Virus record (IMG/VR): IMGVR_UViG_3300011116_001229
Direction: 5' to 3' (one strand)
Length of the DNA stretch: 64,000 nucleotides
From: a virus
Lineage: Duplodnaviria > Caudoviricetes
Shown here piece after piece: positions 14,534 through 46,715 of this stretch. The position numbers and the translations under genes were made by a program. The notes beneath the pieces are model-generated. The model was not told where the DNA came from. It did no database searches and saw nothing but the letters and a program-made list of their open reading frames with translations. Each line of letters opens with the position of its first letter. Positions within the stretch are counted from its first letter, which is position 1.

Positions 14534-14562
14534 AGTGATACATATACGAAGGTAGAAGTTCA

Positions 14563-14874
14563 ATGCAAAAAATTAGCGTTAATCAGCTTAAGCAAATAAT
14601 CAAAGAAGAGATTCAAAAGATCAACGAAGATATCTCTGACGAGATTAAACAATCTTCAAGCGTACAAAACACTTGTGCGGATCTTATTAAGTCAATTGAA
14701 AAATTTAAGTCAAATGCTTCTGAGTCAGCAAAATCTCACGTTGGATTACAAGCACTTGACGAGCTTGTAGAAAAGCTTAAATTTGTTGCAACTAATAGCA
14801 TGAACTACATCGATGCACCTTCTAAACCAAATCCCGCTGTTAAGAAGGCAGTATTTAAACCATCTTCAGAATGA
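14563..14874 (+). CDS. Hypothetical head-region protein with KISVNQLKQIIKEEI motif
   Basis: 103-aa ORF between terminase and portal; N-terminal motif shared with 19588, 20074 and 32506. Confidence 0.7.
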   Translation: MQKISVNQLKQIIKEEIQKINEDISDEIKQSSSVQNTCADLIKSIEKFKSNASESAKSHVGLQALDELVEKLKFVATNSMNYIDAPSKPNPAVKKAVFKPSSE

Positions 14875-14949
14875 TATTGAATTATTGACAGAAACAGTTT
14901 AATATATCCCGCAAGGTGAAACGCCGACTTCGTATTGAGGAGGCATAAT

Positions 14950-21700: not shown

Positions 21701-23731
21701 ATGAGCAAGCAATTATATGAGGAGGCACTGGCAGATGTTAAGAAGCTAAAAGAAATAGCTGAAGACAATGCCAAGCGTGCAATTCTAGAGGCTGTTACGC
21801 CTAGAATAAAAGATCTCATTGAGAATCAACTTCTTGGTGAGGCGGATAAAAGCAACGATTCTGAAGAAGATGAGCTTTTATTAGACGACATGCCTGAGGT
21901 TGTACCAGCAGATGCAGACCCAATTGATGCAGCTATCTCTATGCCTGACGACGAGGGCAAGATTACTCTTGATTTAAGTATGCTTGCATCACCTGAAGAT
22001 GAAGATTACGCTTTGAGCATGGATGATGAGCAGGCAGTCGATGCTTTAGTTCCATCTAATAAAATCAATGTAGTTAAGGCTGAGTCTGCTTTAAGAAAAC
22101 TTGAGAACAAGATACACAATTTTTCAAAAGCAAGTGCTGTGCTACGTGAGACCAAGAGCTATTTGGTGGGTCTGGTGTCAACAATTTCTGAAGTTGAAGA
22201 TATGTATTCAACATTGAAGAATTCTTCAAACACGCAAAATTTGATTCAACGATTGAAGGAATGTCATAAAACGCTCAAAACGCTCATGGAGCAGGAAACG
22301 AACATGAAAAAGAAATTTTCACTCAATGAAGAAGACGTAACTCTTACCCTCAAGGGACTTCCGGACGATTTGAACCTCGATGATGTCGAGATTGAACTCG
22401 TGTCTGGCGGCGCCGAAGAAGAAGAAGGTGAAGAACCCGAAGAAGAAGGCGAAGAAGCTGAGGGTGAAGACGTTTTTGGCGATGAGGGCGAAGACGAAGA
22501 AGATACCGAAGAAACTGAAGAAGGAGAGGAAAGCTCCGAAGAAAAAGAGGAAGAAAAAATGGAAACACGATGGTTAAAGGGCGACGTTGTCGTCGAAATT
22601 GATGAGAACATGCTTCGTAAAGAGATTTCACGTATGAGAGCACTCCGTGAGGAGGCAGTTCCTTCAGCGGACGGCCACGGACCCGGAGACCTCGGTGACC
22701 TTGAGGATGAGGATCTTGGCGATCCTCTTGAGATGGACCTCTCTGAGGCCGATGGCGACCTCGACGAAGAGTACGACATGGACCAGGGAATGGACATGGA
22801 TGCCGATGTAGACATGGATGAAGCCGGCAAGAGCGATGAAGAAGGCGACCTCGACGAAGAGTACGACACGGACCAGGGAATGGACGTGGACATGGACGAA
22901 GCTGACAAGCAAGACAAGAAGGACAAGGAAGGTGACCTTGATCTTGACGAAGCTAGCGAAGAAAAAGACGAAGAAAAAGACGAGAAGAAGATGAAAGAAT
23001 CAATCAAGCGTCGTCTTGCTTCTGAGATTCGCATTCAGACCGAGGCCAAGAAGAAGGCAGGTCAAGCTGCTCAAGCTGTCAAGAAGCAACAGAAGGAAGC
23101 TCAGCAGAAGAAGAAGGACGCACAACAGAAGATGAAGGAAGCTCAGCAACAAGCTAAGCAGAAGAAGATGAAGGAAGCTCAGCAGAAGAAGAAGGATGCC
23201 GAGCAAAAGATGAAGGAAGCTCAGCAAAAGCAGAAGAAAGCTAAGCAGATGAAGGAAGCGTACGATTACTATGCTACCCAATTCAACGAGTCAGTCCTTC
23301 GCACAAGAAAATTACAGGGCATGCTCGCAGAAGCAACTGCTCGCAATGGATCCTCCAAGAATGGTGGAACCACACGGTTAGCGGAGAACACCGTCGAACT
23401 CCGTGATAAGTTGGCAGAAATGAATCTGTTCAACGCGAAGCTACTCTTCACAAACAAGCTGCTTCAGAATGAGTCGCTCACCAAGCGCCAAAAGGCCGAG
23501 GTGATTGAGCGTCTCGACGAGGCACAGAACGTTCGTGAGGCGAAGCTTGTCTATGAGAGCTTGGTGAAGGCCCTCCAAGGTGGATCTACAGGTCGCGCAA
23601 TGACCGAGTCAGCTTCACGCGGAGTCATTGGATCTTCATCACGTCCCGCGCGTCCCGCGGCGACAACAACTACACTCAACGAAGGCTTCGAAGCTGAGCG
23701 TTGGGCGAAGCTCGCGGGCATCATTAAGTGA
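21701..23731 (+). CDS. Prohead scaffolding protein (T4 gp22-like position)
   Basis: 676 aa directly upstream of the major capsid gene; very acidic, coiled-coil; C-terminal NLFNAKLLFTNKLL...ERWAKLAGII; many (L/M)-x-E sites. Confidence 0.75.
   Translation: MSKQLYEEALADVKKLKEIAEDNAKRAILEAVTPRIKDLIENQLLGEADKSNDSEEDELLLDDMPEVVPADADPIDAAISMPDDEGKITLDLSMLASPEDEDYALSMDDEQAVDALVPSNKINVVKAESALRKLENKIHNFSKASAVLRETKSYLVGLVSTISEVEDMYSTLKNSSNTQNLIQRLKECHKTLKTLMEQETNMKKKFSLNEEDVTLTLKGLPDDLNLDDVEIELVSGGAEEEEGEEPEEEGEEAEGEDVFGDEGEDEEDTEETEEGEESSEEKEEEKMETRWLKGDVVVEIDENMLRKEISRMRALREEAVPSADGHGPGDLGDLEDEDLGDPLEMDLSEADGDLDEEYDMDQGMDMDADVDMDEAGKSDEEGDLDEEYDTDQGMDVDMDEADKQDKKDKEGDLDLDEASEEKDEEKDEKKMKESIKRRLASEIRIQTEAKKKAGQAAQAVKKQQKEAQQKKKDAQQKMKEAQQQAKQKKMKEAQQKKKDAEQKMKEAQQKQKKAKQMKEAYDYYATQFNESVLRTRKLQGMLAEATARNGSSKNGGTTRLAENTVELRDKLAEMNLFNAKLLFTNKLLQNESLTKRQKAEVIERLDEAQNVREAKLVYESLVKALQGGSTGRAMTESASRGVIGSSSRPARPAATTTTLNEGFEAERWAKLAGIIK
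22751..22890 (+). repeat. Imperfect 50-nt direct repeat, 90-nt period, in the scaffold gene
   Basis: ggcgacctcgacgaagagtacgaca.ggaccagggaatggac in units at 22751 and 22841 (GDLDEEYD.DQGMD). Confidence 0.85.
23081..23262 (+). repeat. Low-complexity K/Q repeat (KEAQQKKKDA / KMKEAQQ) in the scaffold gene
   Basis: aaggaagctcagca occurs four times; aaggaagctcagcagaagaagaagga twice. Confidence 0.8.
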
Positions 23732-23784
23732 TGTGAACTTTTAACAACAAACCAACTTTAGATTTTTTTAGGAGTCAATTTAAA

Positions 23785-25641
23785 ATGAAGTATTTTAGCT
23801 TAGATCAACTTGCACAGGGTATCCGCGAGAAGCACGTCGGTGCTGAGCGTGCCCGTTTAACAGAGAAGTGGAGCCGCACAGGTCTCCTCCGCGGTCTCGA
23901 CGGCACACGCCGCGAGATGATGGCACAGCTTCTCGAGAACCAGGCTGCACAGGTCCTCAAGGAGAGCTCAGCTCTCTCAACCGGTGGCGGCAACGTTGCA
24001 ACCAGCGGACAGATTCAGGGCTTCAGCAACATCGCATTCCCAATCGTCCGCCGCGTGTTCGGTGGCCTTGTCGCCAACGAGCTCGTTTCAATCCAACCGA
24101 TGAGCCTTCCATCAGGACTCATCTTCTACCTTGATTATACCTACGGTACAACCAAGGGTGGAGCAAACGCCGGCGACGCAACATACACATCAGGTCAATC
24201 TATCTACAACAACCCACGCGGCAAGGGCGTCCAATCAGGATCTCTCGCAGCTGGCGGTATGTACGACCTCGTCGGCACCGGCTACTCCCGCACCTCTGGC
24301 TCGTTCACAGGCGAGAACCTCGCGGCGCTCGGTGCTTTCGGTGGCGCCAATGGCGACACATTCGCTGCAAGCTTGATGATCACATCTGACAGCCAGCTCA
24401 GCGGTTCAAACGCTCGCTTCACTGACTTCGACCCACAGGTCCAAGCAGCAGTGCAGAACAACGACCTCGACCTCACTTTCGCAGTCATGGCCATCACAGG
24501 CTCCGGCTTCGACAAGATGGACAAGCTCGCCGTCGAGCACCTCGCAGTCTTCGGTACAGTGACCAACGCCACAGCATGGGGCGAGACTTACCAAGGTGGC
24601 AGCGGCGTCCTCAACCTCCGCCGCCTCAACAAGCGCGGTAACTGGACAGGCTCCGTCTTCACAGCTGATGCACTCAACGGAACACACGTTCTCATGGTGC
24701 TCAAGGGTGCAAACGGCAACGCTCTCTCAGCAGTTGGCAGCTCACTCCGCGGTTCATTCGTGACTGCAGCCGGCCTCTCGGTCGACAGCACAGTGGGTTC
24801 AACCGTCACAGTGCCTTCCTTCGAGTCCGACTTCGGAACAAACCCGGCCCCGGCAATCCCAGAGATCGACATCCGCATCGAGTCGATCGCTGTGACAGCT
24901 GAGACCCGCAAGCTCCGTGCTCGCTGGTCACCGGAACTCGCGCAAGACCTCAACGCCTATCACTCGATGGACGCAGAGGTTGAGCTCACCTCGATCCTCT
25001 CCGAGCAGATCGCTCTCGAGATCGACCGCGAGATCCTCAACGACCTCGTCACAGCAGCCAACGGCGCCAACTACTACTGGAGCCGCTCACCCGGTCGCTT
25101 CGTCAACAAGACCACAGGCGTTCGCGAGACACTCGCTGACGCATTCCAAATCGGACCGGCCTTCACAGGCACAGTCCGCGAGTGGTACGAGACCCTCGTC
25201 GAGACGATCATCGACGTTGCCAACACCATCCACCGCAAGACACTCCGTGGAAGCGCAAACTTCCTCGTCTGCGGACCGGACGTCGCCACCATCCTCGAGA
25301 GCTCGGTCCTCTACAAGCCCAAGCTTTCCATCGACGGTGAGGGACAAGTTGGAGCTCCGTTCTCCATCGGTGCAGAGAACATCGGTTCCGTGAGCAACCG
25401 CTTCACAGTCTACAAGGATCCTTACTTCGTTAGAAACAAGATCCTCGTCGGCTACAAGGGCGGCAGCTACCTCGAGACCGGCTACGTCTACGCTCCCTAC
25501 GTGCCACTCATCGTGACACCCACCATCTTCGCGCCAGAAGATTTCACGCCACGCAAAGGCGTAATGACTCGCTACGGCAAGAAGATGGTCCGCAGCGATT
25601 TCTTCGGAACTGTCACATGCTTGGACATGAACGTGATATGA
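23785..25641 (+). CDS. Major capsid protein (T4 gp23-like)
   Basis: FPIVRRVF...VSIQPMSLPSGLIFYL, TRKLRARWSPELAQDLNAYH, ALEIDREIL, YAPYVPL, PRKGVMTRYG; AGGAG RBS; strong C-ending codon bias; likely maturation site VLKE60|S. Confidence 0.95.
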   Translation: MKYFSLDQLAQGIREKHVGAERARLTEKWSRTGLLRGLDGTRREMMAQLLENQAAQVLKESSALSTGGGNVATSGQIQGFSNIAFPIVRRVFGGLVANELVSIQPMSLPSGLIFYLDYTYGTTKGGANAGDATYTSGQSIYNNPRGKGVQSGSLAAGGMYDLVGTGYSRTSGSFTGENLAALGAFGGANGDTFAASLMITSDSQLSGSNARFTDFDPQVQAAVQNNDLDLTFAVMAITGSGFDKMDKLAVEHLAVFGTVTNATAWGETYQGGSGVLNLRRLNKRGNWTGSVFTADALNGTHVLMVLKGANGNALSAVGSSLRGSFVTAAGLSVDSTVGSTVTVPSFESDFGTNPAPAIPEIDIRIESIAVTAETRKLRARWSPELAQDLNAYHSMDAEVELTSILSEQIALEIDREILNDLVTAANGANYYWSRSPGRFVNKTTGVRETLADAFQIGPAFTGTVREWYETLVETIIDVANTIHRKTLRGSANFLVCGPDVATILESSVLYKPKLSIDGEGQVGAPFSIGAENIGSVSNRFTVYKDPYFVRNKILVGYKGGSYLETGYVYAPYVPLIVTPTIFAPEDFTPRKGVMTRYGKKMVRSDFFGTVTCLDMNVI

Positions 25642-25673
25642 CATGAATATCATCTGAATTCATATCCTAAGAT

Positions 25674-25709
25674 CTGCAGAGGCCACCCAAAAGGTGGCCT
25701 TTGTAGTTT
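25674..25709 (+). terminator. Intrinsic terminator after the major capsid gene
   Basis: 14-bp stem ctgcagaggccacc / ggtggcctttgtag (two G-U pairs), loop caaaa, short T tract. Confidence 0.7.
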
Positions 25710-25743
25710 ATAAACATTCAGTTGATGTATATATAATAGTTAT

Positions 25744-26571
25744 ATGTTAACTGAAATTGACAATGTCTGTAAAGAGTGTAATACTGAATTCGATTCATTA
25801 GAGTTCGTCTTAAGACACATTCGATGTCACAAGATCAACGCGCAAGAATACGTGCTCAAGTGGAAATACGGTGGACAAGCTCCACACTGTGCTTGTGGAT
25901 GTGGTTCCAAAAATAAGTGGAATATTGCCTTAAAGGATTTTACCCGATTTATTCACGGACATCACGCACATGGCAGAATCAAATCTGAAGAAGAGAAGGC
26001 GAAGATCGGGAGGAAGAACTCTGTAAACATGAAAGAATTCATGTCAAAACACCCAGATGTAGCAAAAAAGAGAATAAAAAAGATGAATCCTCTTTCAAAA
26101 ACTCCTGAGGCAATAAAGAAACAGACAGAGTCTATTCGTCGCTTCTGGGCTGAGTCGCCCCTCGCACCCGTCCTCCGGCAAGAAGCCTCCGCTCGTGCCG
26201 TGCAGCTCTTGGCTGACAACAAGATCGGACCGCACGCTCCCTTCAAGCGTGAGACCCTGATCAGCCCGTGGACCGGCGAGGAGGAGCACATGCACTCGTC
26301 TTGGGAGTCAGCGTTCTACCAGGCCTGCGTGTCTCGCCAGTACCACGTCACCAAGAACCACGGCATCCAGATTCCCTATACCCACCCCGACGGCACCACT
26401 CGGACTTACATTCCTGATTTCTACGGATTTGACGACCGCACCCTGTACGAGGTGAAGGGTCGCCACGACGCCGTGGACCAGGCCAAGTGGGACGCCGCGA
26501 AGGCTTTCTGTGAGAAGCGCAATTGGTGGTTCGTGGTGATGCTCGCCCCGGAGGATGCAGAGCTGTCTTGA
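25744..26571 (+). CDS. Free-standing endonuclease: Zn finger + CxCGCG + PD-(D/E)xK (TnsA-like) domain
   Basis: CKEC...HIRCH, CACGCG, then SSWESAF...IPY...YIPDF...YEVKG. Confidence 0.7.
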   Translation: MLTEIDNVCKECNTEFDSLEFVLRHIRCHKINAQEYVLKWKYGGQAPHCACGCGSKNKWNIALKDFTRFIHGHHAHGRIKSEEEKAKIGRKNSVNMKEFMSKHPDVAKKRIKKMNPLSKTPEAIKKQTESIRRFWAESPLAPVLRQEASARAVQLLADNKIGPHAPFKRETLISPWTGEEEHMHSSWESAFYQACVSRQYHVTKNHGIQIPYTHPDGTTRTYIPDFYGFDDRTLYEVKGRHDAVDQAKWDAAKAFCEKRNWWFVVMLAPEDAELS

Positions 26572-26645
26572 ATCAGCGCGTCCCTTGTGTTTTACGAAAT
26601 TCGTTGATCGTCTATAATATTTGCTCATTTTTGACTACGAACTTC

Positions 26646-26652
26646 ATATTTA
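26646..26652 (+). promoter_or_regulatory. ATA-N-TTA candidate phage late promoter element
   Basis: ATATTTA 73 nt upstream of ATG 26726. Confidence 0.4.
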
Positions 26653-26725
26653 AATTCGCGTCGGAGCGCTGATCAGCAAAACAAACCGGCGCAAGAACAT
26701 TCACAGAAATTATTAGGAGCTCAAA

Positions 26726-27157
26726 ATGGCCAAGATTACAATCACAGATACACAAGGTCTCAATCAAATCAAGTCTGGAGACGGCGTCGTTCTCCAGCAC
26801 ACACCCACAGTCTCTGCTGCTGTGGCACTCGTCACCACAAACACAGCATCGCTTCCCGGTGCGTACACCATCGCAGGTGGAAGCGCAGCCGAAGTGAAGA
26901 TGCCCACAGCCTCAGAATCACTCGGTGGCGTCTTCGTCTTCAGAAGCACATCAGCACAAGCCCACTTTCTCACAGGCTCTGCCGAAGCTGCGGGAACCAA
27001 GGTCTTCGTGCTCGGCGATCCCACAGCCGGCAACGTAAAAAATGGTAGTAAGCTCACACTGCAAGGTGTCGTCGGCGCATCAGTCGCTCTCATCTCTGAC
27101 GGCGTGAACTTTATCGTTCTTCCAGGATCCGGTTCAGTTGCTTTCAGCGGCACCTGA
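26726..27157 (+). CDS. Putative capsid decoration / small abundant virion protein
   Basis: 143 aa, G/A/S/T/V-rich beta-type; AGGAG RBS, capsid-like codon bias, own terminator. Confidence 0.5.
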   Translation: MAKITITDTQGLNQIKSGDGVVLQHTPTVSAAVALVTTNTASLPGAYTIAGGSAAEVKMPTASESLGGVFVFRSTSAQAHFLTGSAEAAGTKVFVLGDPTAGNVKNGSKLTLQGVVGASVALISDGVNFIVLPGSGSVAFSGT

Positions 27158-27181
27158 TTCTAGAAACTGCCAATAAACAGC

Positions 27182-27217
27182 AAAGAGGTTCTCAGCGATG
27201 GGAACCTTTTTCTTTTT
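27182..27217 (+). terminator. Intrinsic terminator
   Basis: Stem aaagaggttctc / gggaaccttttt, loop agcgat, followed by cttttt. Confidence 0.8.
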
Positions 27218-27223
27218 GCTCCC

Positions 27224-27230
27224 ATAGTTA
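27224..27230 (+). promoter_or_regulatory. ATA-N-TTA candidate phage late promoter element
   Basis: ATAGTTA just after a terminator and 7 nt before ATG 27238. Confidence 0.4.
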
Positions 27231-27237
27231 TTCAGTC

Positions 27238-28284
27238 ATGCCCACCCGTCGATTTAGTGCCTTAAGACCCAATGAGATGCGGGACGTCCTCGATGCTTTC
27301 TTGGGTTCACCCTCCCGGTCTCAGTTCACAGAGAAACTAGCCGGTCAGAATATGGCGCTCACTGTGCTACCCGGTGGTGAGGTGGAGTACGCGGGCAAGG
27401 GCGGCAAGACCACTATCGGTGGCGGCCTCTTTCCTCAGGTGACGCGTGCTCTACGTGATAATCATCCAGCGGTATCGAAACCGGTTTCTTACAGCTTCGA
27501 GGTCTTAAAGAAGACCGGCCGGTCTGACTTCATTGATTATCCCATAGACAAAGACTTTGCGGTGGTCGAACTAACGGGTCAATTAGATCAAGCTACAGCT
27601 GATCAACTGAACAGCGGGCAAGGTGCAGTTGCCTTTCTACCCAAAGAAGCGATCAAGAAGTCAGCTGCTGCTTACGTCAAAGAACCCGGAGACAAAGAAG
27701 CACTGCTTAAATTTAGGGATGAGCTCGCGTCAGGCAGGAAGCCTAGCAAAGAGAGGGCTGCTGAGATAGAGAGGCTCTTGATGTCAGTCGTGGACAGCGG
27801 CGGCGTGCCTTCAACCTTGGGTAGCGAACGGATCGAGGGTCTGTTTGGTCAGCTTGACGGTGGTACTTTTAAGATCCCATCTAAACAGTACGACGAACTG
27901 CAGAAAGATCAGTCAAGATTTGTGGCGATCGTTCGACGAGTACCCATGAAAGACATCGAGTCGCGCTTCCAGAATGCCGCTGATGATCCCGCTGCGGATC
28001 GCTTTGTCTCAGACGTCCTAGATTACGTCGACAAAATGGCCTCGGCAAAACTACCGAAGGGTTTTAGGACATTTTTCTCACCCACGGAGATGACAGGATT
28101 GAGCGGTCTAGCAGCAGCCTATCGCTCCGGTGACGCTGAGGCAGGGACGCAACTCGTCAAGCAATTCTTCAAGAGAGTCAACACAAAATCTGATTGGGTG
28201 TCTTCAGGAGTCCAAGAAGCTGCGATCATAAATGATCTAAGAAAATTGGTGAGAGAGCACCTCAAATCTCTAAGAAAACATTGA
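27238..28284 (+). CDS. Ligase-like (nucleotidyltransferase-fold) hypothetical protein
   Basis: FTEKLAGQN resembles ligase motif I (KxDG, here KLAG); YSFEVL and RIEGLF...GTFKI resemble motifs III and IV/V. Confidence 0.45.
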   Translation: MPTRRFSALRPNEMRDVLDAFLGSPSRSQFTEKLAGQNMALTVLPGGEVEYAGKGGKTTIGGGLFPQVTRALRDNHPAVSKPVSYSFEVLKKTGRSDFIDYPIDKDFAVVELTGQLDQATADQLNSGQGAVAFLPKEAIKKSAAAYVKEPGDKEALLKFRDELASGRKPSKERAAEIERLLMSVVDSGGVPSTLGSERIEGLFGQLDGGTFKIPSKQYDELQKDQSRFVAIVRRVPMKDIESRFQNAADDPAADRFVSDVLDYVDKMASAKLPKGFRTFFSPTEMTGLSGLAAAYRSGDAEAGTQLVKQFFKRVNTKSDWVSSGVQEAAIINDLRKLVREHLKSLRKH

Positions 28285-28351
28285 GTTAAATCGCGTTGTA
28301 ATTTTTTTAAACTTTAAGTTACTATATGCTGCATAGATATAATAAGGCTAT

Positions 28352-29839
28352 ATGGTAACGACAAAAAGCAGATTAACCAAGAGGTGCGCACTCGTCGTCG
28401 CCTCAGTGTTGTTCGCGTCCTACGGATGCGAGAGACCGAACCCTTATAAGCTTGCAGGCGACACTTCTGCAGTGTTTGAAGATTGTCCAACGCCCACTGT
28501 GAAGACGACTTCGTCCACCTCGTCAAGTGTTTCGTCTGCGGTTGCTACATCAACGGGAACCGGCGGTCAAGAGGTAAGCTCGGCCGCCACTGTGGGTCCA
28601 TCCGTGACGTCTACGGGGTCAGGTAATAATGAACCAAAAATTGAGCTGACAGAGCTTGACGAGAGAGAGCTAGATTATTCTGAAGCTCTTAGAACAGCTA
28701 GCATGCTCATCATTGGAGAACTACCCACTCTGACAGAGGTCTACGAGCTGGGCGATCTACCACCTGATCAGCAGAAGGTGAAGTACGAAGATCTAATCGA
28801 TAAGAAGTTATCAGATCCTCGATTTGCCGCGACCCTGGTGGAGTTCTTCAAGTACACGTTCAAGATGGGTGGAGCGTCTACTGTTGCAGGTGAACCGAAT
28901 CGTGACACGGCACCGACTTTTGCTGCGAAGGTGGTCTATGAAGAAAAAGATTGGCGCAACATTCTCGTTCAGCAAGCTAATACATGTCCTACTTTTAATC
29001 CTGCAAGTAACTCCTTTACTGATGGTAGCTGCAACAATCTTCCCGCGGGGATAAACCATTCAGGCATCCTCACCAACCCAGGCGTGCAGAGCCTGTACTT
29101 CGGTAACCTCTCTTTCCGCCGAAACCGATTCTTTCACGAGACGTTTCTCTGTCGCTCTGGTAACGAGCAAGCCGGCGGCGAACCAACAGATCAACCGCCT
29201 TCAGATGCACCATGCAGCGGTGTCAATCCGATTCCCGGTTACCAGAATAAATGGCCTGTCAATGAGATTGCGGGAACTTGCAATGGAGGACGTGTAGACT
29301 TTCATGCTTACAACAGCAGCAACGTGTGTGCCAACTGTCACGCCACGTGGAACCACCGCTCACCCCTCTTCAGCCAGTTCGACTCAAACGGCGTGTTTCA
29401 ACCCCTCACCGCGTCAGGTGAGTACTCAGTCTTTGTCCCTGTGACCGGTTCACCGCGCGCCAAGTTGAGCGATTGGTTGTGCGTCGGTCCAACCTGTCCA
29501 AATGGAGGCAGCAATTCAACAGCTTGGAAAAAGATTATGAAAGTCGACGGTGTTGAAGTTGCTGCATCTGCTTCCACGATCAACGAACTTGGACAGCAGA
29601 TGTCCAAGGATGACGAAGTGATCGAATGTGCTGTGAAGCGAACTTGGAATTATGCTATGGGTAGAGCAGACATCACAGAAATCGGTGGACGCTCTTGGGT
29701 AAGCTTACCGGATCGCAAAGACAAGAACCCAGAATTAGTCACCATGTCCAAGTTAGTTTCTCAGTTTAAGTCTAACGGATTCAACTTGAAGAAAGTTTTT
29801 AGGACAATTTTAACGTCAGATGATTTCACGAGGTTTTAA
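28352..29839 (+). CDS. Lipoprotein, DUF1549/DUF1585-like, with CxxCH motif
   Basis: Basic N-region, hydrophobic h-region, lipobox ASYG|C; T/S/G linker; LRTASMLIIGELPT...YEDLIDKKLSDPRF; CANCH; CAVKRTWNYAMGR...FKSNGFNLKKVFRTILTSDDF. Confidence 0.65.
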   Translation: MVTTKSRLTKRCALVVASVLFASYGCERPNPYKLAGDTSAVFEDCPTPTVKTTSSTSSSVSSAVATSTGTGGQEVSSAATVGPSVTSTGSGNNEPKIELTELDERELDYSEALRTASMLIIGELPTLTEVYELGDLPPDQQKVKYEDLIDKKLSDPRFAATLVEFFKYTFKMGGASTVAGEPNRDTAPTFAAKVVYEEKDWRNILVQQANTCPTFNPASNSFTDGSCNNLPAGINHSGILTNPGVQSLYFGNLSFRRNRFFHETFLCRSGNEQAGGEPTDQPPSDAPCSGVNPIPGYQNKWPVNEIAGTCNGGRVDFHAYNSSNVCANCHATWNHRSPLFSQFDSNGVFQPLTASGEYSVFVPVTGSPRAKLSDWLCVGPTCPNGGSNSTAWKKIMKVDGVEVAASASTINELGQQMSKDDEVIECAVKRTWNYAMGRADITEIGGRSWVSLPDRKDKNPELVTMSKLVSQFKSNGFNLKKVFRTILTSDDFTRF

Positions 29840-29840
29840 A

Positions 29841-30857
29841 ATGAAGAGAAAGTTCCTTCCGGGCATTGTTTTCTTAACTGCGTACGTATTCTCTTCAGCA
29901 TGTGGGTCAACAGCACCTGACATTGGTGAGAATTACTGCCCTGACGAAGAGATAGTCGTGACAGACTCTGTCACAGTTTCAGCTGTTTCTTCAACTTCAT
30001 CAACTGTTGCAACATCGGGTGCCGGAGGTGCGCCCGTAGATCAACCCGCTGCAACTTCTTCTGGGTCTGGCATGGAAGATCTTCCTCAGTATAATACACC
30101 AAATTTAGATGAGATAGTATCACGTTTGCACGGTTGCCATAAGCTTACCTACACCCAGATTGGTAATCTGCTAAGAGCGAGAGGTGTTGCAATTCCACCC
30201 GGCAATGTCTCCGACGTCAGAACTACGCAGGCGTCAATATTTGGAGTGACACAAACCCTTGGTTCAATTTTTGGCGGAAGCGGCTCAGCCTGCGAGATGG
30301 CAATCACCGACGCAAATGGCACAAATGATCCCATCTGTCCTTCAAATGAGTCTTGCTTCTGTAATCAAGATGACAAGATGAACCAGGTCAACAGAGGCTG
30401 TTTAGACGTCGGTAACAATTCTCCCGATGCTGCCGATGGATACTGTGTATCAAAGCCCTTTACAGCTGGTTTCTTGTATTTCACAGGCAAAGATGCCCTT
30501 GGTGTTCCGAAGCTTGATTCACGCCTTGGAGAAAAAGAAGAGCATACTACAGCCTCTGCTATGAAGTTAATGGACATATTTATTCAGGCTGCGCCACAGA
30601 TCATCGCAAATATTGGCGATTCTTCCAAAGCTCCGGCCTGCACCTTAAATGGTAAAAATATGCCGATGTTCGCTAATGACGGAAGCTGTGTTGAAGAGTC
30701 TGTGAGCTGTTTAATAGGCATGCCAGCCACAGACGATCACATGCTGTTGTGCAATCTTTTGATTCAAAAGGCAAAACAGGGTGACTCGTCAGATCTCATG
30801 AAGAAGAAGATAATTGCTGTCTCCGTTCTTCTCAGTGCTACTCATTCTTGTCAATAA
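29841..30857 (+). CDS. Cys-rich lipoprotein of myxobacterial type
   Basis: Start reassigned to ATG 29841 (GAGGT RBS, 1 nt after upstream stop); MKRKFLPGIVFLTAYVFSSA|C lipobox; S/T/G linker; many Cys; ends IAVSVLLSATHSCQ. Confidence 0.65.
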   Translation: MKRKFLPGIVFLTAYVFSSACGSTAPDIGENYCPDEEIVVTDSVTVSAVSSTSSTVATSGAGGAPVDQPAATSSGSGMEDLPQYNTPNLDEIVSRLHGCHKLTYTQIGNLLRARGVAIPPGNVSDVRTTQASIFGVTQTLGSIFGGSGSACEMAITDANGTNDPICPSNESCFCNQDDKMNQVNRGCLDVGNNSPDAADGYCVSKPFTAGFLYFTGKDALGVPKLDSRLGEKEEHTTASAMKLMDIFIQAAPQIIANIGDSSKAPACTLNGKNMPMFANDGSCVEESVSCLIGMPATDDHMLLCNLLIQKAKQGDSSDLMKKKIIAVSVLLSATHSCQ

Positions 30858-30874
30858 ACTAAAGGGTATCTAGA

Positions 30875-32476
30875 ATGGCTAATTGGAAACTCAAAGAACT
30901 TAGAGATGAAAGACGTCGAACGTTTCTTAAGATGTGCACAGTTGCAGCAGCTGCTGTAGGCATTGAGAGAAGCAAGTTACTAAATTTTCTTGCTGACGAG
31001 GGCGGATATGGTCTGGCCGAGGCGGCAGGTTCTACATACGGTCGTTCTTTATTAGTGCCGGCCCCAAACGGTTCACAAGCCTGGTTTCAAGAACTGTGGC
31101 CTGTCGCTGATGTCGGTTTCAAAGCATGCCAAAATGCCAATGTTCCTGGGCTATCTTCCAACTTTGGTGGATTCTCTTCCTATCTTTACACGTCTCAGTA
31201 CGGTTATAATCCTGCTAATGGATATCGAGGAACTTATGTGTGGGGTAAAGGTAATCCAATGCCTTCGCTTCCAATGGGCGTAAAAGGATGGGCAGGAGGA
31301 GATAGATCTTTCTTTTACGGTCCTGATGCGCCTTGGTTTGATCATGCTTTAGGCGTTCCGAAATACCCAGTGTCAGCTTTTATGTCTGGCAAAGATGAGA
31401 CGCACACCGAGTTTCCTATCTCGCAGGTTACCCTATCTGGAAATGCTTCAATGCAGGCAGCATTAGCATCACTTGGCGCAGCAGGGTCATCAGCAATAGT
31501 ACCAGTTCTTGGTATTGATCCTGTCAAATATGGAAGAGCACCCGGTGCACCAGAAGTTGCTACAGTTCCATCATCTGCGGGCATGATCGACCTCTTTAAT
31601 AGCTCAGCCAGCCAATTCACGCTAGCAAGCAAAATTGATCAAGATCTTTTTGAAGTCTACTATAAGGCCTTAGCAGGTTTAAGAAAATCTTCTGGCAGAT
31701 CTTCCTGGATTCCTCAGATGCAGATCACCAAGAATGCTGCAAGGATTATCGGTCTTAATTTTGCATCCCAGCTGACACCAACCAGTCAAGATCTTGCTGA
31801 TTTTGGAATTCAAGAGATGATCGATGGACTTAATGCTTCTTCTATGTACATGTCAGCTGCTCAGAGGAGAGGAATCGAAGAGTTTGGAAGAACTCTGATC
31901 GTGGTTGCTAAAGCATTCGCGCTCGGTCTATCCAAGACGGCAATTGTAGCTCTCTCACCCGGTCCGACTAGTGACACGACGTTTACGGATCCTCACGTTA
32001 CATTTGATAATATGACCTTGATGAACCAAGGCAGGAATACTACAAAGCATTTAGGCAAGGTCCTGAATGGCTTCTATAACTACCTGTCACAGCAGGTGGA
32101 CCCTGAAAGTCCAACAGAGAAGCTAGATCAGAGTACAGTATTCGTTGCATACGGCGATACACCACACACACCGCTGCAAGGTTCAACATGGCCCGATGCT
32201 ACTCCGGATGCCTGTAACTTCGTATATGTCATGGATCCCAAAGGAAACACAAAGAACGGATGGTTCGGTCATGTCTATGCGAATAAGATAGGCGGAAAGA
32301 ACGCAGTCGGTTTTAATCCAGCTACCGGAGCTGACGACGTTAGCAAGACATCAGAACAATGTTCAGCGTTTGCTTCTGCTGCGATTGTATATGCTGCCGC
32401 GAAGGGCGACGTTAACAAGACTGCCGAATATGGTGTGTCGCCAGGCATTGTTTCTGGATTAATTAATATAAAGTGA
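30875..32476 (+). CDS. Tat-exported DUF1501-like protein
   Basis: Twin-arginine signal ERRRTFLK plus hydrophobic stretch; FTDPH and LDQSTVFVAYGDTPHTP resemble the GGWDTH and LDDTLVVV.SEFGRTP motifs of DUF1501-type proteins. Confidence 0.6.
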   Translation: MANWKLKELRDERRRTFLKMCTVAAAAVGIERSKLLNFLADEGGYGLAEAAGSTYGRSLLVPAPNGSQAWFQELWPVADVGFKACQNANVPGLSSNFGGFSSYLYTSQYGYNPANGYRGTYVWGKGNPMPSLPMGVKGWAGGDRSFFYGPDAPWFDHALGVPKYPVSAFMSGKDETHTEFPISQVTLSGNASMQAALASLGAAGSSAIVPVLGIDPVKYGRAPGAPEVATVPSSAGMIDLFNSSASQFTLASKIDQDLFEVYYKALAGLRKSSGRSSWIPQMQITKNAARIIGLNFASQLTPTSQDLADFGIQEMIDGLNASSMYMSAAQRRGIEEFGRTLIVVAKAFALGLSKTAIVALSPGPTSDTTFTDPHVTFDNMTLMNQGRNTTKHLGKVLNGFYNYLSQQVDPESPTEKLDQSTVFVAYGDTPHTPLQGSTWPDATPDACNFVYVMDPKGNTKNGWFGHVYANKIGGKNAVGFNPATGADDVSKTSEQCSAFASAAIVYAAAKGDVNKTAEYGVSPGIVSGLINIK

Positions 32477-33976: not shown

Positions 33977-34762
33977 TTATAAGATTTTAAATGCTTCAAA
34001 GTGCATACCATCTGGTCTATTAGGAAACCATCCACCCCAATAGAAACCATGGTCGTATGCAATTTTAACTAATTCTCTAACACTTCCATCATTGTTTTTT
34101 AGCGCAGGGACTGTTCCAAGCATATTCCATTGCACATTGATATCAAAAGCAGTTCCCCAAGAATGATTTGAAAGAGAAGTTCTCGAGCCTCTTATAAATC
34201 GAGGCACCCAAGAACCACCCCAGGACTTAAGCCTGTGTGAAAGACATGAACTTTCCCAGGCAGAAAATAGTGATAATATTTGATTTTCTAACAGTTTGTG
34301 AACCTGAATAGAGCTGTCTGACGGTGCGCCCTTTAAACCGCTTAATTGGCAAATTGTAATAGTGCTGATGTTATCTTTTGCCCATCCGTTCGTTATCTTT
34401 ATAGCTTCTGGGTTTGCAGCTGTAGGAGCTGCAATATAAGTAAACTCTCCAAATAGTCTTATCCTATCGACGGGAGAAAGTGAGCCATGGGATGGTTTTT
34501 GTGGCCAATTAGGACCGTCTTCATTTACTTGATCATCTGTCATTAAATTAAATCCAAGATTTAAAGCCGCAGCCACTGTCGCCGGACCAACTACTCCATC
34601 GTCTGTTAGCTTTGATTTACTTTGAAATTCTTTTGTTTCGTCATGTGTGGTCTGGCCGAACTGACCATCTACTATAACTGTACTGTTTTTCTTCCTGCCT
34701 CTCAAGAAGATCTGCCACTTTTCTACGTCGGGCCCGCTCGATCCAAATTTAATTATTTTCAT
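33977..34762 (-). CDS. Endolysin: peptidoglycan-binding domain + M15-family metallopeptidase
   Basis: FGSSGPDVEKWQIFL...DGQFG..T...KEFQ...DGVVGP PG-binding pattern; SNHSWGTAFDIN and DGMHFE Zn motifs; GAGGA RBS. Confidence 0.85.
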   Translation of the reverse strand: MKIIKFGSSGPDVEKWQIFLRGRKKNSTVIVDGQFGQTTHDETKEFQSKSKLTDDGVVGPATVAAALNLGFNLMTDDQVNEDGPNWPQKPSHGSLSPVDRIRLFGEFTYIAAPTAANPEAIKITNGWAKDNISTITICQLSGLKGAPSDSSIQVHKLLENQILSLFSAWESSCLSHRLKSWGGSWVPRFIRGSRTSLSNHSWGTAFDINVQWNMLGTVPALKNNDGSVRELVKIAYDHGFYWGGWFPNRPDGMHFEAFKIL

Positions 34763-34843: not shown

Positions 34844-36022
34844 ATGGCAAATTTTAGCGATACAATAAGTCCAACACCGTTTGGTTTTTTTGATTCTGAC
34901 ACCGAATTTCAGACAGAGGCTGATAATATGGTCAACTTTGTCAAGAGAAAGCTGGGTGATGACGTATTGTCTGTTGAGCTTACCAAGAAAGAAATTTGGG
35001 CATGCTTTGAAGAAGCGTGCTGTGAATATTCTAAGCATATTCACGAGATGAAAATAATGTCTGAATTATCAAACATTTTAGGAATGCCGACAGGATCTAC
35101 AGACTTAACAAATAAGTACACAAGAAACACTTTAGAATTCCTATTAAGAATGTCCGATGCATATGCATCAGAAGCTTACGTCGGAGGATCATACAATGCT
35201 CAGCTAGGATATTTTGACATTCAGGCTGATAGACAAGACTATGACATCTACGCGGATCTAAAAGATGCAGTTACAAATCAAGTAATATATCAGACGATAC
35301 CCAGTGGCTCAAAAGGTAAGCTAAAAATTGTAGAGTTATTTCACTTTGAACCAATCGCAGCTCAGCACTTTTTGCTCAATGCATCTAATATCACAAATTA
35401 CCTTGCAACAAATTTTAACTACGAGTCGTACATCAACTCTACGGTTTTTTACGTATTACCAGTCTTTGAAGATGTGCTTAGAAGAGGCATGCTAGAAACT
35501 GCATTTAGAGTGAGAAGATCACAATACAGCTATCAAATACTTGGAAGCAAACTGAGGCTCTTTCCAATACCAGTCCTTGAGTCACAGATTGGTAGAGTTT
35601 ATTGTAAAGTCATGGAAGGAAAAAATCCACTAAATCCTACAGCATACACAGACGATAGAATCTATGGCGTCTCAGGACCTGAGAATGCGCCATACAGCAA
35701 TATACCCTTTAAGAATGTAACACAACCAGGAAGACAGTGGATACGTCAATATACGCTTGCGCTATCAAGAGAACTTCTTGGTCTAATTCGTTCTAAGTTC
35801 CAAAGTATCCCAATACCTAACGCTGATCTACAATTAAATGGAGAGAGCTTGGTTTCTACGGGTCGAGAAGACAAAGATAAGCTCGTGACTCAATTAAAAG
35901 AATTTTTATCTAATTTAACTAGATCAAAATTGCTTGAAGTAGATGCTCTTGCTGCCGAGAACATGAATAAGAATTTACGGTATATACCGATGCCGCTAGG
36001 AAAATCAATCGTTATAGGTTGA
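34844..36022 (+). CDS. Neck protein (T4 gp13-like)
   Basis: FVKRKLG...VELT...EACCEY; WIRQYTLALSRELLG.IRSKF..IP.P....LNG; position before gp14/gp15-like genes. Confidence 0.75.
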   Translation: MANFSDTISPTPFGFFDSDTEFQTEADNMVNFVKRKLGDDVLSVELTKKEIWACFEEACCEYSKHIHEMKIMSELSNILGMPTGSTDLTNKYTRNTLEFLLRMSDAYASEAYVGGSYNAQLGYFDIQADRQDYDIYADLKDAVTNQVIYQTIPSGSKGKLKIVELFHFEPIAAQHFLLNASNITNYLATNFNYESYINSTVFYVLPVFEDVLRRGMLETAFRVRRSQYSYQILGSKLRLFPIPVLESQIGRVYCKVMEGKNPLNPTAYTDDRIYGVSGPENAPYSNIPFKNVTQPGRQWIRQYTLALSRELLGLIRSKFQSIPIPNADLQLNGESLVSTGREDKDKLVTQLKEFLSNLTRSKLLEVDALAAENMNKNLRYIPMPLGKSIVIG

Positions 36023-37998: not shown

Positions 37999-40900
37999 AT
38001 GTCAGAGCAGACTTTTAAGTCGCCAAATTTTTATGAGCGCGAGATAGATCTTTCAGCACCAGCAGTTACAGGTCCAACAGGCGTACCTGCATTGATCATT
38101 GGCACTGCAAATAAAGGTCCGGCATTTGTTCCGGTAACAGTTGCTAACTTCAATGAATACGTTGAGGTATTCGGTAACTTAGACCCAGACAAATTTGGGC
38201 CATATGCTGCCAATGAGTTCTTAAAGAATAGATCGTCTCTCTCTTATATTAGAGTCTTGGGAGCCGGAGCTAATTCAACATCTGCGCACATAACGAGTAC
38301 AGCAACTTATGGTGTTGTTGAAAAGGCAGGATTTGTATTAGCAGGAACTGCAACAACCGATAATAGACACGCGGGTGCAGTTCAATTCCTTGTTGCTAGA
38401 CATGACATAGGAACTTATGAAGGTGCAGCCGCTCCGATGTTCTCTGACAACGACACGTTCGCAGGTTCATCCTATGTCAATCTAGTACGCGGTCTCATCA
38501 TGACCCCTAACACATCTAGAATCATGGTCACTGCTTCTCACGGAAGCATTGCAGCATCTTCTTTTGCAGTTGCGACAGCAATTAACGATGATGCTGATCT
38601 TATATCTGGTAAGTTTAAGCTTATTATTTCTTCTTCGCTGGGTGCAGATTTTGCCGTGACAGACGGTGTCACGGGCGTCAAGGTTTTGACAGCATCGTTT
38701 GATCCATCCGACAGCGATTACGTTGGCAAGATTCTCAATAGAGATCCTGACAAGTTTTACCAAGAGCAACATTATCTACATGCCGATTTCGCAGTTGATA
38801 AATCAATTGTATTCGCAAGCGGTAGCGCTCAAAGCAGAGTCGGTATTCTTTCTGGTTCAGCGAATACTTCAACCGCAGGTGATTCTTCTAAATCATTCCG
38901 CGAAGTCTTTGGATCTTATAATACACGCTTCACTGCACCAAAAACAACAACCTTCATCTCTCAGCCGTTCGGTAAGACTGAATACGACTTATTCCATTTC
39001 GAAGCAATTGACGATGGAGAGTACGCAAATCAGCTTTACAAGATCTCAATCTCAAATTTAAAGGCATCAGCAAATGATGCTGATCGCTATGGTACATTCA
39101 CAATTCAAGTTAGAAGCTGGGATGATACTGACCAAAATCCACAAGTCATTGAGCAATTCTCAAACTGCTCATTAAATCCCGACTCTCCAAACTACGTTGC
39201 CAAGCTAATCGGCGATAGAAAAGTACAGTACAACTTTGACTCTGTTCTGCCCGGAGAACGTCGTTTAATTGCAACTGGCAAATACGCAAATCGTTCAAGA
39301 TACGTCAGAATTATAATGAATTCGCTGGTTGACAATAAGGAAGTCCCAGAGAACAGCTTACCGTTTGGATTTAAGGGTGTTCATGCACTTAATATAAATC
39401 CCAACCTCGTTTCATCTACAGCTTTAAGTTCTGCAAATGCACGCCTGGGAGGAAAGCTCAGTACTTCATTTGCCAATCTTTCATCTTCATACGTTCCTCC
39501 TGTTCCAATGAGATTTAAGGTGACAAGAGGCGAGATGCCGACAAGCCCCTCGTTCATTGGAGCACCGGGCAATTCAGAAGTTACAGTGCCAGGTCTCTAC
39601 TGGGGTGTTAAGTTCGAGAGAGATAGCACATCATCTTCACCTACAGGTACTTCTCTTCTCAATCCGAATGTTGTTCAAGAAAAGAACGAACTTCTTGCAT
39701 CACTCACTAAGTTCGTGGGTATCGAGAAGCTTGATTCTCTTGTGACAGGTTCTAATGCTGATTCACTCAATAATAATAAGTTCTCACTGTCAAAGGTCGT
39801 TCTTTACAATGATTCAATCGGCGACTTAACTAGCTCTATCAACTCACACATGAAAGAAGCAGCTTATATTAGAAATGCTGCACTTGACAACACAAAGTAC
39901 ACTTACTCTGAAGGCGGCCGCAATAGAATGTCACTCGCGACAATTCTGGCATCAGGATCTGCGTCTGACTTTAACAAGTTCTCTGCCTTTGCTAAGTTCA
40001 CAAACTTCATGTATGGTGGATTCGACGGTACTAATTTCTTAGAGAGAAATGCTCGAAGGCTTAATGATAAGTCAGTATCTTTCGACGTCGGGGGTGGTGC
40101 TTCTACGACCAACACAATTTCTGGATTCTCAACTAATCCATCGGGTCAAGATGTCAACAACAATGGTGTTGCTTCTTACTTAGCAGCTGTTAATATTGGC
40201 ACAGATCCTCTAGTTGCAAATAATAATATACTTGCAATACCTGGAATCAGAGAGCCTTACATCAATGACAATGCCATGGCAAAAGTCAAGGATTACGGTC
40301 TTGCAATTCATGTTATGGACATACCGTCTTATGATGATAGCGGCAATAGACTGTACGATGACTCTACGGCTAAGCCAAACATCAATTATGTTTGCAATGA
40401 ACTTGACGCAAGAAGCATAGACAACAACTATGTTGCCACATACTTCCCGGACGTCTACATTGATGATGAAACCAATAGAAGAAGAGTCAAAGTACCTGCA
40501 TCAGTCGCAGCTCTTGGTGCTCTCGGATTTAACGACAGAGTGTCTTACCCATGGTTTGCACCCGCAGGCTTCAACCGAGCCGCCTTAGACTTTGTCACAA
40601 ACGTTGCAGTTCGTCTAAACGTCTCTGACAGAGATAGACTTTATGAGTCAAGAATCAACCCCATAGCGACATTCCCAAGATTGGGATTCGTTGTCTACGG
40701 TCAGAAGACTCTACAGATCAACAAGTCTGCTCTTGACAGAGTAAATGTTCGTAGACTCATGCTTGAGATAAAGCGTGTGATTATTGACATCGCGAAGAGA
40801 ATTGTCTTCGAGCAAAATACACCAGCAGTTAGAAATAAATTCGTGGCAGATACCTCATTCCAGCTTGGTCTCATCCAAGTTCAAGCAGGCATTGAAGGTT

Positions 40901-41049
40901 TCCAGGTTGTCATGAACGAAACAAACAACACACAAGAAGATGTTGATCTTAACAGACTCAATGGAAGAATAGTCGTTGTTCCAACAAGAGTTGTTGAATT
41001 CATCGCAATCGACTTTATCGTCACAAATAGTGGGGTTCAGTTCGTGTGA
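37999..41049 (+). CDS. Tail sheath protein 1 (gp18-like)
   Basis: SPNFYEREID, IIGTANKGPAFVP, WFAPAGFNR, RINPI, GQKTL, LDRVNVRRL, EFIAIDF; AAGGAG RBS. Confidence 0.92.
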   Translation: MSEQTFKSPNFYEREIDLSAPAVTGPTGVPALIIGTANKGPAFVPVTVANFNEYVEVFGNLDPDKFGPYAANEFLKNRSSLSYIRVLGAGANSTSAHITSTATYGVVEKAGFVLAGTATTDNRHAGAVQFLVARHDIGTYEGAAAPMFSDNDTFAGSSYVNLVRGLIMTPNTSRIMVTASHGSIAASSFAVATAINDDADLISGKFKLIISSSLGADFAVTDGVTGVKVLTASFDPSDSDYVGKILNRDPDKFYQEQHYLHADFAVDKSIVFASGSAQSRVGILSGSANTSTAGDSSKSFREVFGSYNTRFTAPKTTTFISQPFGKTEYDLFHFEAIDDGEYANQLYKISISNLKASANDADRYGTFTIQVRSWDDTDQNPQVIEQFSNCSLNPDSPNYVAKLIGDRKVQYNFDSVLPGERRLIATGKYANRSRYVRIIMNSLVDNKEVPENSLPFGFKGVHALNINPNLVSSTALSSANARLGGKLSTSFANLSSSYVPPVPMRFKVTRGEMPTSPSFIGAPGNSEVTVPGLYWGVKFERDSTSSSPTGTSLLNPNVVQEKNELLASLTKFVGIEKLDSLVTGSNADSLNNNKFSLSKVVLYNDSIGDLTSSINSHMKEAAYIRNAALDNTKYTYSEGGRNRMSLATILASGSASDFNKFSAFAKFTNFMYGGFDGTNFLERNARRLNDKSVSFDVGGGASTTNTISGFSTNPSGQDVNNNGVASYLAAVNIGTDPLVANNNILAIPGIREPYINDNAMAKVKDYGLAIHVMDIPSYDDSGNRLYDDSTAKPNINYVCNELDARSIDNNYVATYFPDVYIDDETNRRRVKVPASVAALGALGFNDRVSYPWFAPAGFNRAALDFVTNVAVRLNVSDRDRLYESRINPIATFPRLGFVVYGQKTLQINKSALDRVNVRRLMLEIKRVIIDIAKRIVFEQNTPAVRNKFVADTSFQLGLIQVQAGIEGFQVVMNETNNTQEDVDLNRLNGRIVVVPTRVVEFIAIDFIVTNSGVQFV

Positions 41050-41065
41050 AATTGAGTCTTAAGTA

Positions 41066-41072
41066 ATAGTTA
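41066..41072 (+). promoter_or_regulatory. ATA-N-TTA candidate phage late promoter element
   Basis: ATAGTTA 24 nt upstream of sheath 2. Confidence 0.45.
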
Positions 41073-41096
41073 GCTAGTAGTAATTGGAGAGCTTAA

Positions 41097-46714: not shown

Positions 46715-46715
46715 G

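Follow-up and report, generated by a model that had tools for sequence, protein, structure and literature searches.

Why should a bacteriophage of the T4 type keep, between the genes for its head and its neck, three genes whose products are addressed to the envelope of a bacterial cell? The question is raised by IMG/VR virus record IMGVR_UViG_3300011116_001229, a 64,000-nucleotide stretch of DNA (the window) from a virus of the Caudoviricetes. The window belongs to a T4-like phage, as it encodes a terminase, a gp20 portal, a gp21 protease, gp23, and sheath and baseplate proteins. Three intact, tightly packed plus-strand open reading frames (ORFs), here called genes A, B, and C, form a 4.1-kb cassette in the variable region between the gene for the major head protein gp23 and a gp13-like neck gene, a placement that is repeated in related contigs of 97-273 kb. 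Gene A (28352-29839, 495 amino acids) encodes a lipoprotein with a PSCyt/PSD-superfamily domain that contains one CxxCH motif. Gene B (29841-30857, 338 amino acids) encodes a cysteine-rich lipoprotein of no known family, and gene C (30875-32476, 533 amino acids) encodes a protein with a twin-arginine translocation (Tat) signal, an alkaline-phosphatase/sulfatase-superfamily fold, and a remote relationship to DUF1501. Rather than virion genes, the cassette is probably an auxiliary envelope module of host origin that keeps the extracytoplasmic chemistry of its bacterial ancestor.

Gene arrangement and export signals

The three genes are separated by gaps of 1 and 17 nucleotides, and gene B has an alternative in-frame ATG at 29820 that would overlap gene A. 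The products of A and B each start with a basic N terminus and a hydrophobic stretch that precede a lipobox (SYG-C with Cys26 in A, SSA-C with Cys21 in B). A PROSITE-style lipobox rule is satisfied by 36 of 38 homologs of A and 24 of 27 homologs of B, and the lipobox cysteine is invariant across the alignments of both proteins. The linker that follows consists of 80-83% serine, threonine, glycine, alanine, valine, and proline and contains TSTGTGG in A and ATSGAGG in B. C carries the twin-arginine motif R14-R15-T-F-L-K19 (within RRRTFLK; 30914-30931, plus strand) and scores 18.0 bits against the NCBIfam Tat model TIGR01409, above the curated cut-off of 16.7. R14, R15, and F17 are invariant in an alignment of 49 sequences, and the motif RRx[FLW][LIVM][KRQ] is kept in 49/49 homologs. 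These signals indicate that all three proteins are likely to be routed to the cell envelope.

A TATAAT element (28338-28343, plus strand), read directly from the DNA, lies 8 nucleotides upstream of the start of gene A and resembles a -10 box. It is a possible promoter, and a TATAAT/TATTAT-like element is found at an equal distance from gene A in the loci of many related phages. The window has 3 sites of the T4 late consensus TATAAATA against 1.9 expected, which is no enrichment, and no upstream motif common to the structural genes was seen. A model-made first-pass annotation of the window had described the three intact genes with their short gaps, the TATAAT, the lipoboxes with their linkers, and the twin-arginine signal, all of which were borne out.

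Origin of the cassette in freshwater Polyangiaceae

A protein search with C returned 110 relatives. Copies on phage-like contigs are 77-93% identical and copies on bacterial contigs about 76% identical, with the nearest bacterial A-B-C loci flanked by ClpB/GlmS on one side and by GH35/Mrp antiporter genes on the other, on contigs of 87-261 kb in metagenome-assembled genomes (MAGs) of freshwater Polyangiaceae. A genome scan (one genome per species) found 78 loci, all in Myxococcota and mostly in Polyangiaceae, with some in Kofleriaceae and Sandaracinaceae. The cultured carriers among them are Polyangium fumosum DSM 14668 and P. jinanense SDU13, and several Myxococcota genomes possess three or four cassette paralogs. 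IMG/VR holds 35 further viral loci at 80-95% identity. Wherever the flank is long enough, in phages and bacteria alike, the order is A-B-C, and the co-location of homologs in bacteria that the first-pass annotation had expected is thus present in all 78 Myxococcota loci with such flank. Among 50,697 deposited phage records, neither the cassette (blastn) nor C (tblastn) had a match, and no RNA dataset was among the runs that match the whole cassette or gene C alone.

Maximum-likelihood analysis of C places the 32 phage copies in a single clade, with a Shimodaira-Hasegawa-like approximate likelihood ratio test (SH-aLRT) support of 98. This clade is nested within a clade (support 100) that also contains freshwater Polyangiaceae copies, and the copy in a Lake Tanganyika MAG is sister to the phage clade (support 80). 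The host-derived origin that had been proposed for the cassette therefore agrees with its position in the tree. The GC content of the cassette is 64% in the nearest bacterial copies (64-67% in bacterial relatives) and 41-47% in phage copies, near the phage background. In most pairs of copies synonymous sites are saturated while protein identity stays at 80-95%, and synonymous sites are saturated in comparisons with the bacterial copies too. Among unsaturated phage pairs the ratio of nonsynonymous to synonymous substitution rates (dN/dS) is 0.061 for A, 0.075 for B, and 0.037 for C, far below neutrality, as the non-neutral evolution foreseen at the outset would have it. All three genes are under strong purifying selection in the phage clade. 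The cassette thus shows the viral hallmark flanks, the nesting in a host phylogeny, and the purifying selection by which phage auxiliary genes are recognized.

Among the more distant bacterial loci, 32 (e.g., L070:2790-3983) have an additional gene directly upstream of A on the same strand, making a four-gene operon. The added gene encodes a lipoprotein of about 400 amino acids with two CxxCH motifs (CGLCH and CLNCH) that has no Pfam match and whose Atlas neighbors are cytochrome c and PSCyt1 clusters. Together with the heme motif of A, these heme-rich bacterial surroundings favor redox chemistry over a plain hydrolase.

Repeated capture by phages

The variable region does not have the same content in all relatives of this phage. 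The close gp23 relatives L148, L149, L154, and L195 have other small genes between gp23 and gp13 and no cassette. L208, a 200-kb phage contig with a gp23 that is 75% identical, has a different and shorter A-B-C paralog right after gp23 (14194-17499). The L208 proteins (388, 241, and 459 amino acids) are 32-38% identical to those of the window and keep the CANCH, lipobox, and Tat features. C of L208 clusters with a different Polyangiaceae clade (support 96) and shares as much as 67% identity with a bacterial copy, and the GC content of the module is 0.447 vs 0.417 for its locus. In the tree of C, the starred branches require at least two changes of the phage/bacterium label. Since these changes are forced and a different paralog occupies the same spot in L208, the cassette has been captured at least twice, as different paralogs. 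That one operon was taken up twice, each time as a different paralog, speaks for a selective benefit to the phages.

Gene A, a heme-motif lipoprotein

Residues 326-330 of A form the c-type heme attachment motif CANCH (29327-29341, plus strand), of which C326, C329, and H330 are invariant in the alignment of A. Exactly one CxxCH is present in each of the A homologs (95/95) and A is therefore a putative mono-heme c-type lipoprotein. Its Pfam matches, to PSD2/DUF1585 (PF07624; 25.1 bits, gathering cut-off 25.8) and PSCyt2/DUF1549 (PF07583; 18.5 bits, cut-off 29.8), are sub-threshold, and many relatives of A have precomputed matches to PF07624 or PF07583. The AlphaFold 2 (AF2) model of A has a mean predicted local distance difference test (pLDDT) score of 81, and most of the core from residue 100 on exceeds 90. 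The model matches AFDB clusters of DUF1549, DUF1592, DUF1585, DUF1588, and Planctomycete cytochrome C (E 1.6e-11 to 1e-5), the template modeling (TM) score by query being 0.42-0.48 for most matches. The likeness to DUF1549 and DUF1585 that the first reading had named is thus seen in the sub-threshold profile matches as well as in the fold. No solved structure matches the model of A at Z >= 5. No solved relative of A was found, and the null result with the Protein Data Bank (PDB) should not be taken as a sign of a new fold.

Gene B and its coupling to gene A

B has no match in Pfam, PHROGs, NCBIfam, or PADLOC, and a profile search with B matched only 283 representative clusters among 1.84 billion proteins. 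Its Atlas neighbors are Myxococcota and viral clusters. The conserved features of B are an RxHxCxK motif, a set of cysteines, and a C-terminal xC[EQ], the penultimate cysteine of which is near-invariant. An extra cysteine-rich insert of about 75 residues is shared by the phage copies and the bacterial copies closest to them. B has an even number of conserved cysteines, and C283 is found in 71% of homologs, as is C304, so that the cysteines are more likely to be all disulfide-bonded. A SoxY-like carrier arm, which the penultimate cysteine had suggested, is no more than a weak idea for B.

Natural fusions of A and B occur in three representative clusters, P0254 (L219:4001-5875), P0259, and P0277, with lengths of 569-624 amino acids. 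In these proteins a full A, with lipobox and CANCH, is joined within a few residues to the conserved domain of B, which lacks its own signal and linker. The context of two clusters was checked (P0254 and P0259; one on a 530-kb contig), and in both a C-sized gene lies directly downstream and no separate B is present. Such fusions are good evidence of A and B working as a single unit. A possible B-C fusion (P0279), in which the end of B and the Tat motif of C are missing, may be a frameshift artifact and was not used. Complex prediction for A (residues 100-495) with C (residues 53-533) scored 0.00 vs a mark of 0.32, which gives no answer and is not counted either way.

Gene C, fold and family

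The AF2 model of C (mean pLDDT 82.9) was compared by VIA-align with 48,161 solved chains. The best 50 are all members of the alkaline-phosphatase superfamily (Z 7.9-11.5), with 216-275 aligned residues and a sequence identity of 5-11%. The fold of C was recognized via VIA-align, AFDB, and Atlas; a Foldseek search of the PDB gave only weak rows (E >= 0.013), and the profile of C against PDB sequences gave only a chance-level match. In AFDB, C matches DUF1501, DUF1552, and DUF1800-fusion clusters, the DUF1501 clusters at E 5e-7 to 1e-4. An hhalign comparison with a DUF1501 profile built from proteins of Polyangiaceae genomes gave a probability of 90% (E 1.5e-6, residues 238-437), in which FTDPH of C pairs with GFDTH and GDTPHTP pairs with SEFGRTP. 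For DUF1552 the probability was 1.5%, with an alignment of that family that was small and poorly trimmed. The Atlas shape search gave TM scores of 0.60/0.68 over 398 residues with a DUF1501 cluster and 0.48/0.56 with a DUF1552 cluster. These model-based comparisons favor a closer relationship of C to DUF1501 than to DUF1552 (PF07586, HXXSHH), in keeping with the DUF1501-like label of the first-pass annotation.

The relationship is a remote one. C has no Pfam match at E <= 0.01 and does not reach the curated cut-off of 27 bits for DUF1501 (PF07394). A PF07394 scan of three Polyangiaceae genomes found canonical DUF1501 genes (1, 2, and 5 matches) and not the four cassette copies of genome G001. 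Invariant or near-invariant residues of C include H177, D372-P-H374, D428-T-P-H431, and D441, and of these H177, D372, H374, D428, H431, and D441 are candidate metal ligands.

Proposed role during infection

The following course of events is proposed as the probable one. An ancestor of a clade of large freshwater T4-like phages would have copied the complete three-gene operon from a freshwater Polyangiaceae myxobacterium, and the phage would have the infected Polyangiaceae cell make all three proteins. Sec would export A and B, whose lipobox cysteines would be lipidated and whose long flexible linkers would serve as tethers, and A would be loaded with one c-type heme by the host maturation system. 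C would be exported in a folded state via Tat, probably already with its metal. The three proteins may then form an envelope-anchored complex in which the A-B unit holds the heme and C is the metal-dependent catalytic subunit. The phage copy most likely would run the same extracytoplasmic reaction as the host paralogs and would sustain or boost that reaction during a long infection. A more specific version makes the cassette a periplasmic enzyme system of a new kind, in which the A-B heme c unit passes electrons to or from C, and C is an oxidoreductase or redox-gated esterase, not a plain hydrolase; large phages of planktonic Polyangiaceae would have captured it repeatedly for the limiting resource that it supplies during infection. 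This version is put forward tentatively and is on balance unlikely.

Several points weigh against the general proposal. The cassette is accessory; among phages related in gp23 (63-79% identity) it is present in 7/25 loci with at least 9 kb downstream of gp23. The phages do not have the upstream two-heme cytochrome gene, nor do the closest bacterial loci. No nucleophile motif is evident after the first beta strand of C, where GNG stands in place of the GGxD-type motif of DUF1501, and in the absence of the usual Asp/nucleophile motif catalysis by C would not be assured. The assignment of Polyangiaceae as the host of the phage is drawn from gene origin only. No member of the module superfamily has a known biochemical function (PMC3542564, PMC5615132), and for that reason the reaction shared with the host cannot be specified.

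The first-pass annotation had named superinfection exclusion, redox support, and social signaling as possible purposes. Other explanations of the cassette give it a different use or no use at all. It is possible, though doubtful, that the cassette scavenges nutrients in nutrient-poor lakes. With the help of the heme lipoprotein, C would hydrolyze phospho- or sulfo-esters (or a related ester) in organic matter, dissolved or bound to surfaces, and so provide phosphorus or sulfur for a genome of at least 200 kb. Cyanophages carry phosphate-acquisition genes such as pstS and phoA. The fold of C and its conserved His/Asp candidate metal ligands would suit such a hydrolase, as would the source habitats, which are lakes and other freshwaters, and the large genomes implied by phage contigs of 187-273 kb, three of which are rated 52-65% complete by CheckV. 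A GH35 glycosidase gene neighbors the cassette in five loci, and several paralogs per host genome are usual for substrate-diverse uptake and degradation systems. However, the canonical nucleophile motif was not found in C, and no phosphate- or sulfate-regulon genes were seen beside the operon. A plain hydrolase also needs no cytochrome partners, yet the CxxCH of A is invariant and the two-heme lipoprotein is often adjacent. An improbable alternative is superinfection exclusion or receptor masking, in which the envelope lipoproteins would block other phages or the adsorption of progeny to the debris of lysed cells. Some phage lipoproteins, e.g., Llp of T5, act in this way, and both the variable accessory region that holds the cassette and the envelope routing of two of its three products, as lipoproteins, are compatible with it. 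Exclusion proteins, however, are usually single, small, and fast-evolving, whereas here the phages retain an entire enzyme-like operon of three genes with 76% identity to the copies on host chromosomes, all family-invariant residues (including CxxCH and the His/Asp set), and a dN/dS of 0.04-0.08. None of the three proteins matches a PADLOC defense model.

The location of the genes between gp23 and gp13, in a stretch (22-32 kb) with a raised GC content like that of gp23, might suggest that A, B, and C are virion or assembly proteins. This is very improbable, considering their lipoprotein and Tat export signals, the orthologous operons in non-prophage chromosomal context in bacteria, the four close gp23 relatives without the genes, and the lack of any PHROG match. 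There is next to no probability that the cassette is host contamination, a chimeric assembly, or a recent neutral passenger, despite the high amino acid similarity to bacterial genes that such an artifact would explain. The arrangement recurs in the 35 IMG/VR loci and further assemblies from many samples, on at least 30 independent viral contigs, and near-identical DNA is present in runs from 7 studies that include viral-fraction libraries and lake water. The GC content has moved to phage values, synonymous sites are saturated relative to the bacterial copies, and dN/dS is low. Contamination, misassembly, and neutral drift are therefore excluded. The first-pass annotation had tied its reading to four matters, namely the export signals, the co-location of homologs in bacteria, dN/dS, and contamination; all were checked, and all favor a host-derived envelope module.

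Relationship to known systems

The PSCyt/PSD + DUF1501 modules of the Planctomycetes-Verrucomicrobia-Chlamydiae (PVC) phyla are conserved, bear Tat signals and signal peptides, and have no known function (Kamneva et al. 2012, PMC3542564). The function of these genes was still described as wholly unknown by He et al. 2017 (PMC5615132). The cassette is a divergent variant of these modules, Myxococcota-specific in the genomes scanned, in a new carrier. The modules of Planctomycetota, Verrucomicrobiota, and Lentisphaerota resemble it in having a CxxCH-containing, PSCyt/PSD-type exported protein encoded next to, and on the same strand as, a DUF1501-type Tat protein, and both occur as several paralogs per genome. 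The fold of A matches DUF1549, DUF1592, DUF1585, and DUF1588, and C matches DUF1501 in profile and shape. In contrast to the known modules, A and C of the cassette are below the curated Pfam cut-offs, A is a short lipoprotein that contains one heme motif and neither a PSCyt1 nor a PSD1 domain, and C has FTDPH and GDTPH where DUF1501 has GFDTH and SEFGRTP. The cassette also has an obligatory third gene, B, and its family is found only in Myxococcota among the genomes scanned and is here borne by phages. The first-pass annotation had called the cassette the best candidate for an undescribed system; the broader class of modules is not undescribed, having been reported with unknown function (Kamneva et al. 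2012, PMC3542564).

A second kind of module pairs PSCyt3/PSD proteins (DUF1585/1587/1588/1592/1595) with DUF1552 (HXXSHH, PF07586), of which Polyangiaceae genomes have 5-8 copies each. The best Pfam match of A, PSD2/DUF1585, lies near its C terminus as expected for such modules, and DUF1552 models are among the fold matches of C. C is nevertheless nearer to DUF1501 (Atlas TM 0.60 vs 0.48; hhalign 90% vs 1.5%, the latter with the small and poorly trimmed DUF1552 alignment). C shares its core alpha/beta fold with the alkaline-phosphatase superfamily, which includes S1 sulfatases, NPP phosphodiesterases, alkaline phosphatases such as PafA, and phosphoethanolamine transferases. It differs from them in its sequence, with an identity of 5-11%, in that no Cys/Ser-x-Pro-x-Arg or Thr/Ser nucleophile motif is recognized, and in having heme lipoproteins as partners, something not known from those hydrolases. 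T4-like phages carry host-derived auxiliary metabolic genes, e.g., the photosystem and phosphate-acquisition genes of cyanophages. Like these genes, the cassette is host-derived, lies in a variable region, is under purifying selection, and has the base composition of the phage. Unlike them, it is a whole three-gene operon for exported envelope proteins with a cofactor motif, and phages took it up on at least two occasions in the form of different paralogs. In a 2026 preprint on 790 myxobacterial phages, none of the words cytochrome, lipoprotein, and jumbo appears in the main text, and no phage isolated on Polyangiaceae was among the phage records and literature searched.

Phage context of the cassette

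The left edge of the variable region is the gene for the T4-type major head protein gp23 (23785-25641, plus strand), which matches phrog_138 (E 1e-74) and whose orthologs in related phages match PF07068 (Gp23). Its right edge is the gene for a gp13-like head-tail adaptor (34844-36022, plus strand), which matches phrog_211 and whose orthologs match PF26809 (Phage_T4_gp13). The GC content of positions 22001-32000, which include gp23 and the cassette, is elevated (0.46-0.55 vs 0.33-0.43 in most of the first 22 kb). Directly after gp23 lies a gene (25744-26571) with a TnsA-like endonuclease N-terminal domain, and a second such gene is found at 44937-45854; both look like homing endonucleases, and other endonuclease-like genes follow gp23 directly in the relatives L131, L195, and L208. 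Two conserved ORFs (143 and 348 amino acids; 26726-28284) without a family match lie just upstream of the cassette and are present in L007 and not in L004. An endolysin-like gene (PG_binding_1 and Peptidase_M15_4; 33977-34762, minus strand) lies inside the structural block and is conserved in relatives on either strand.

Downstream of the gp13-like adaptor is a tandem pair of full-length tail sheath paralogs (1016 and 1030 amino acids; 37999-44189), also present in the related contig L007, and a baseplate protein is encoded after the two sheath genes. An intein (Intein_splicing, residues 98-461) that bears an HNH endonuclease domain (HNH_3, residues 221-263) interrupts the gp20 portal gene (14935-18081). 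A single ORF of 1052 amino acids (9076-12234) has a Metallophos (Mre11-like) N terminus and SMC/AAA_23/SbcC Walker B (Rad50-like) regions, which suggests a fused gp47-gp46-type nuclease. Laminin_G_3 (concanavalin-like lectin) domains occur in two proteins, encoded at 45953-46726 (minus strand) and 4490-7036, that are possible host-binding parts. Phage contigs that bear the cassette measure 187-273 kb. CheckV rates three of these, L018, L020, and L028 (187-211 kb), as 52-65% complete, so that the entire genomes may be larger than 300 kb; the rating of L208, which has the other paralog, is 61%.

Significance

PSCyt/PSD + DUF1501-type modules are among the most expanded uncharacterized gene sets in Planctomycetota, Verrucomicrobiota, and Polyangia, the last of which is shown here. 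The purifying selection on the minimal phage version, the second independent capture, and the A-B fusions mark the cassette as a self-sufficient unit with a real fitness effect, and at 4.1 kb it is small enough to express and assay. The origin of the genes also suggests planktonic Polyangiaceae as the hosts of a widespread clade of freshwater T4-like phages whose contigs measure 187-273 kb. Should the cassette prove to encode a redox enzyme, its compact phage version would be the first tractable handle on the PSCyt/PSD + DUF1501 modules of planctomycete, verrucomicrobial, and myxobacterial genomes.

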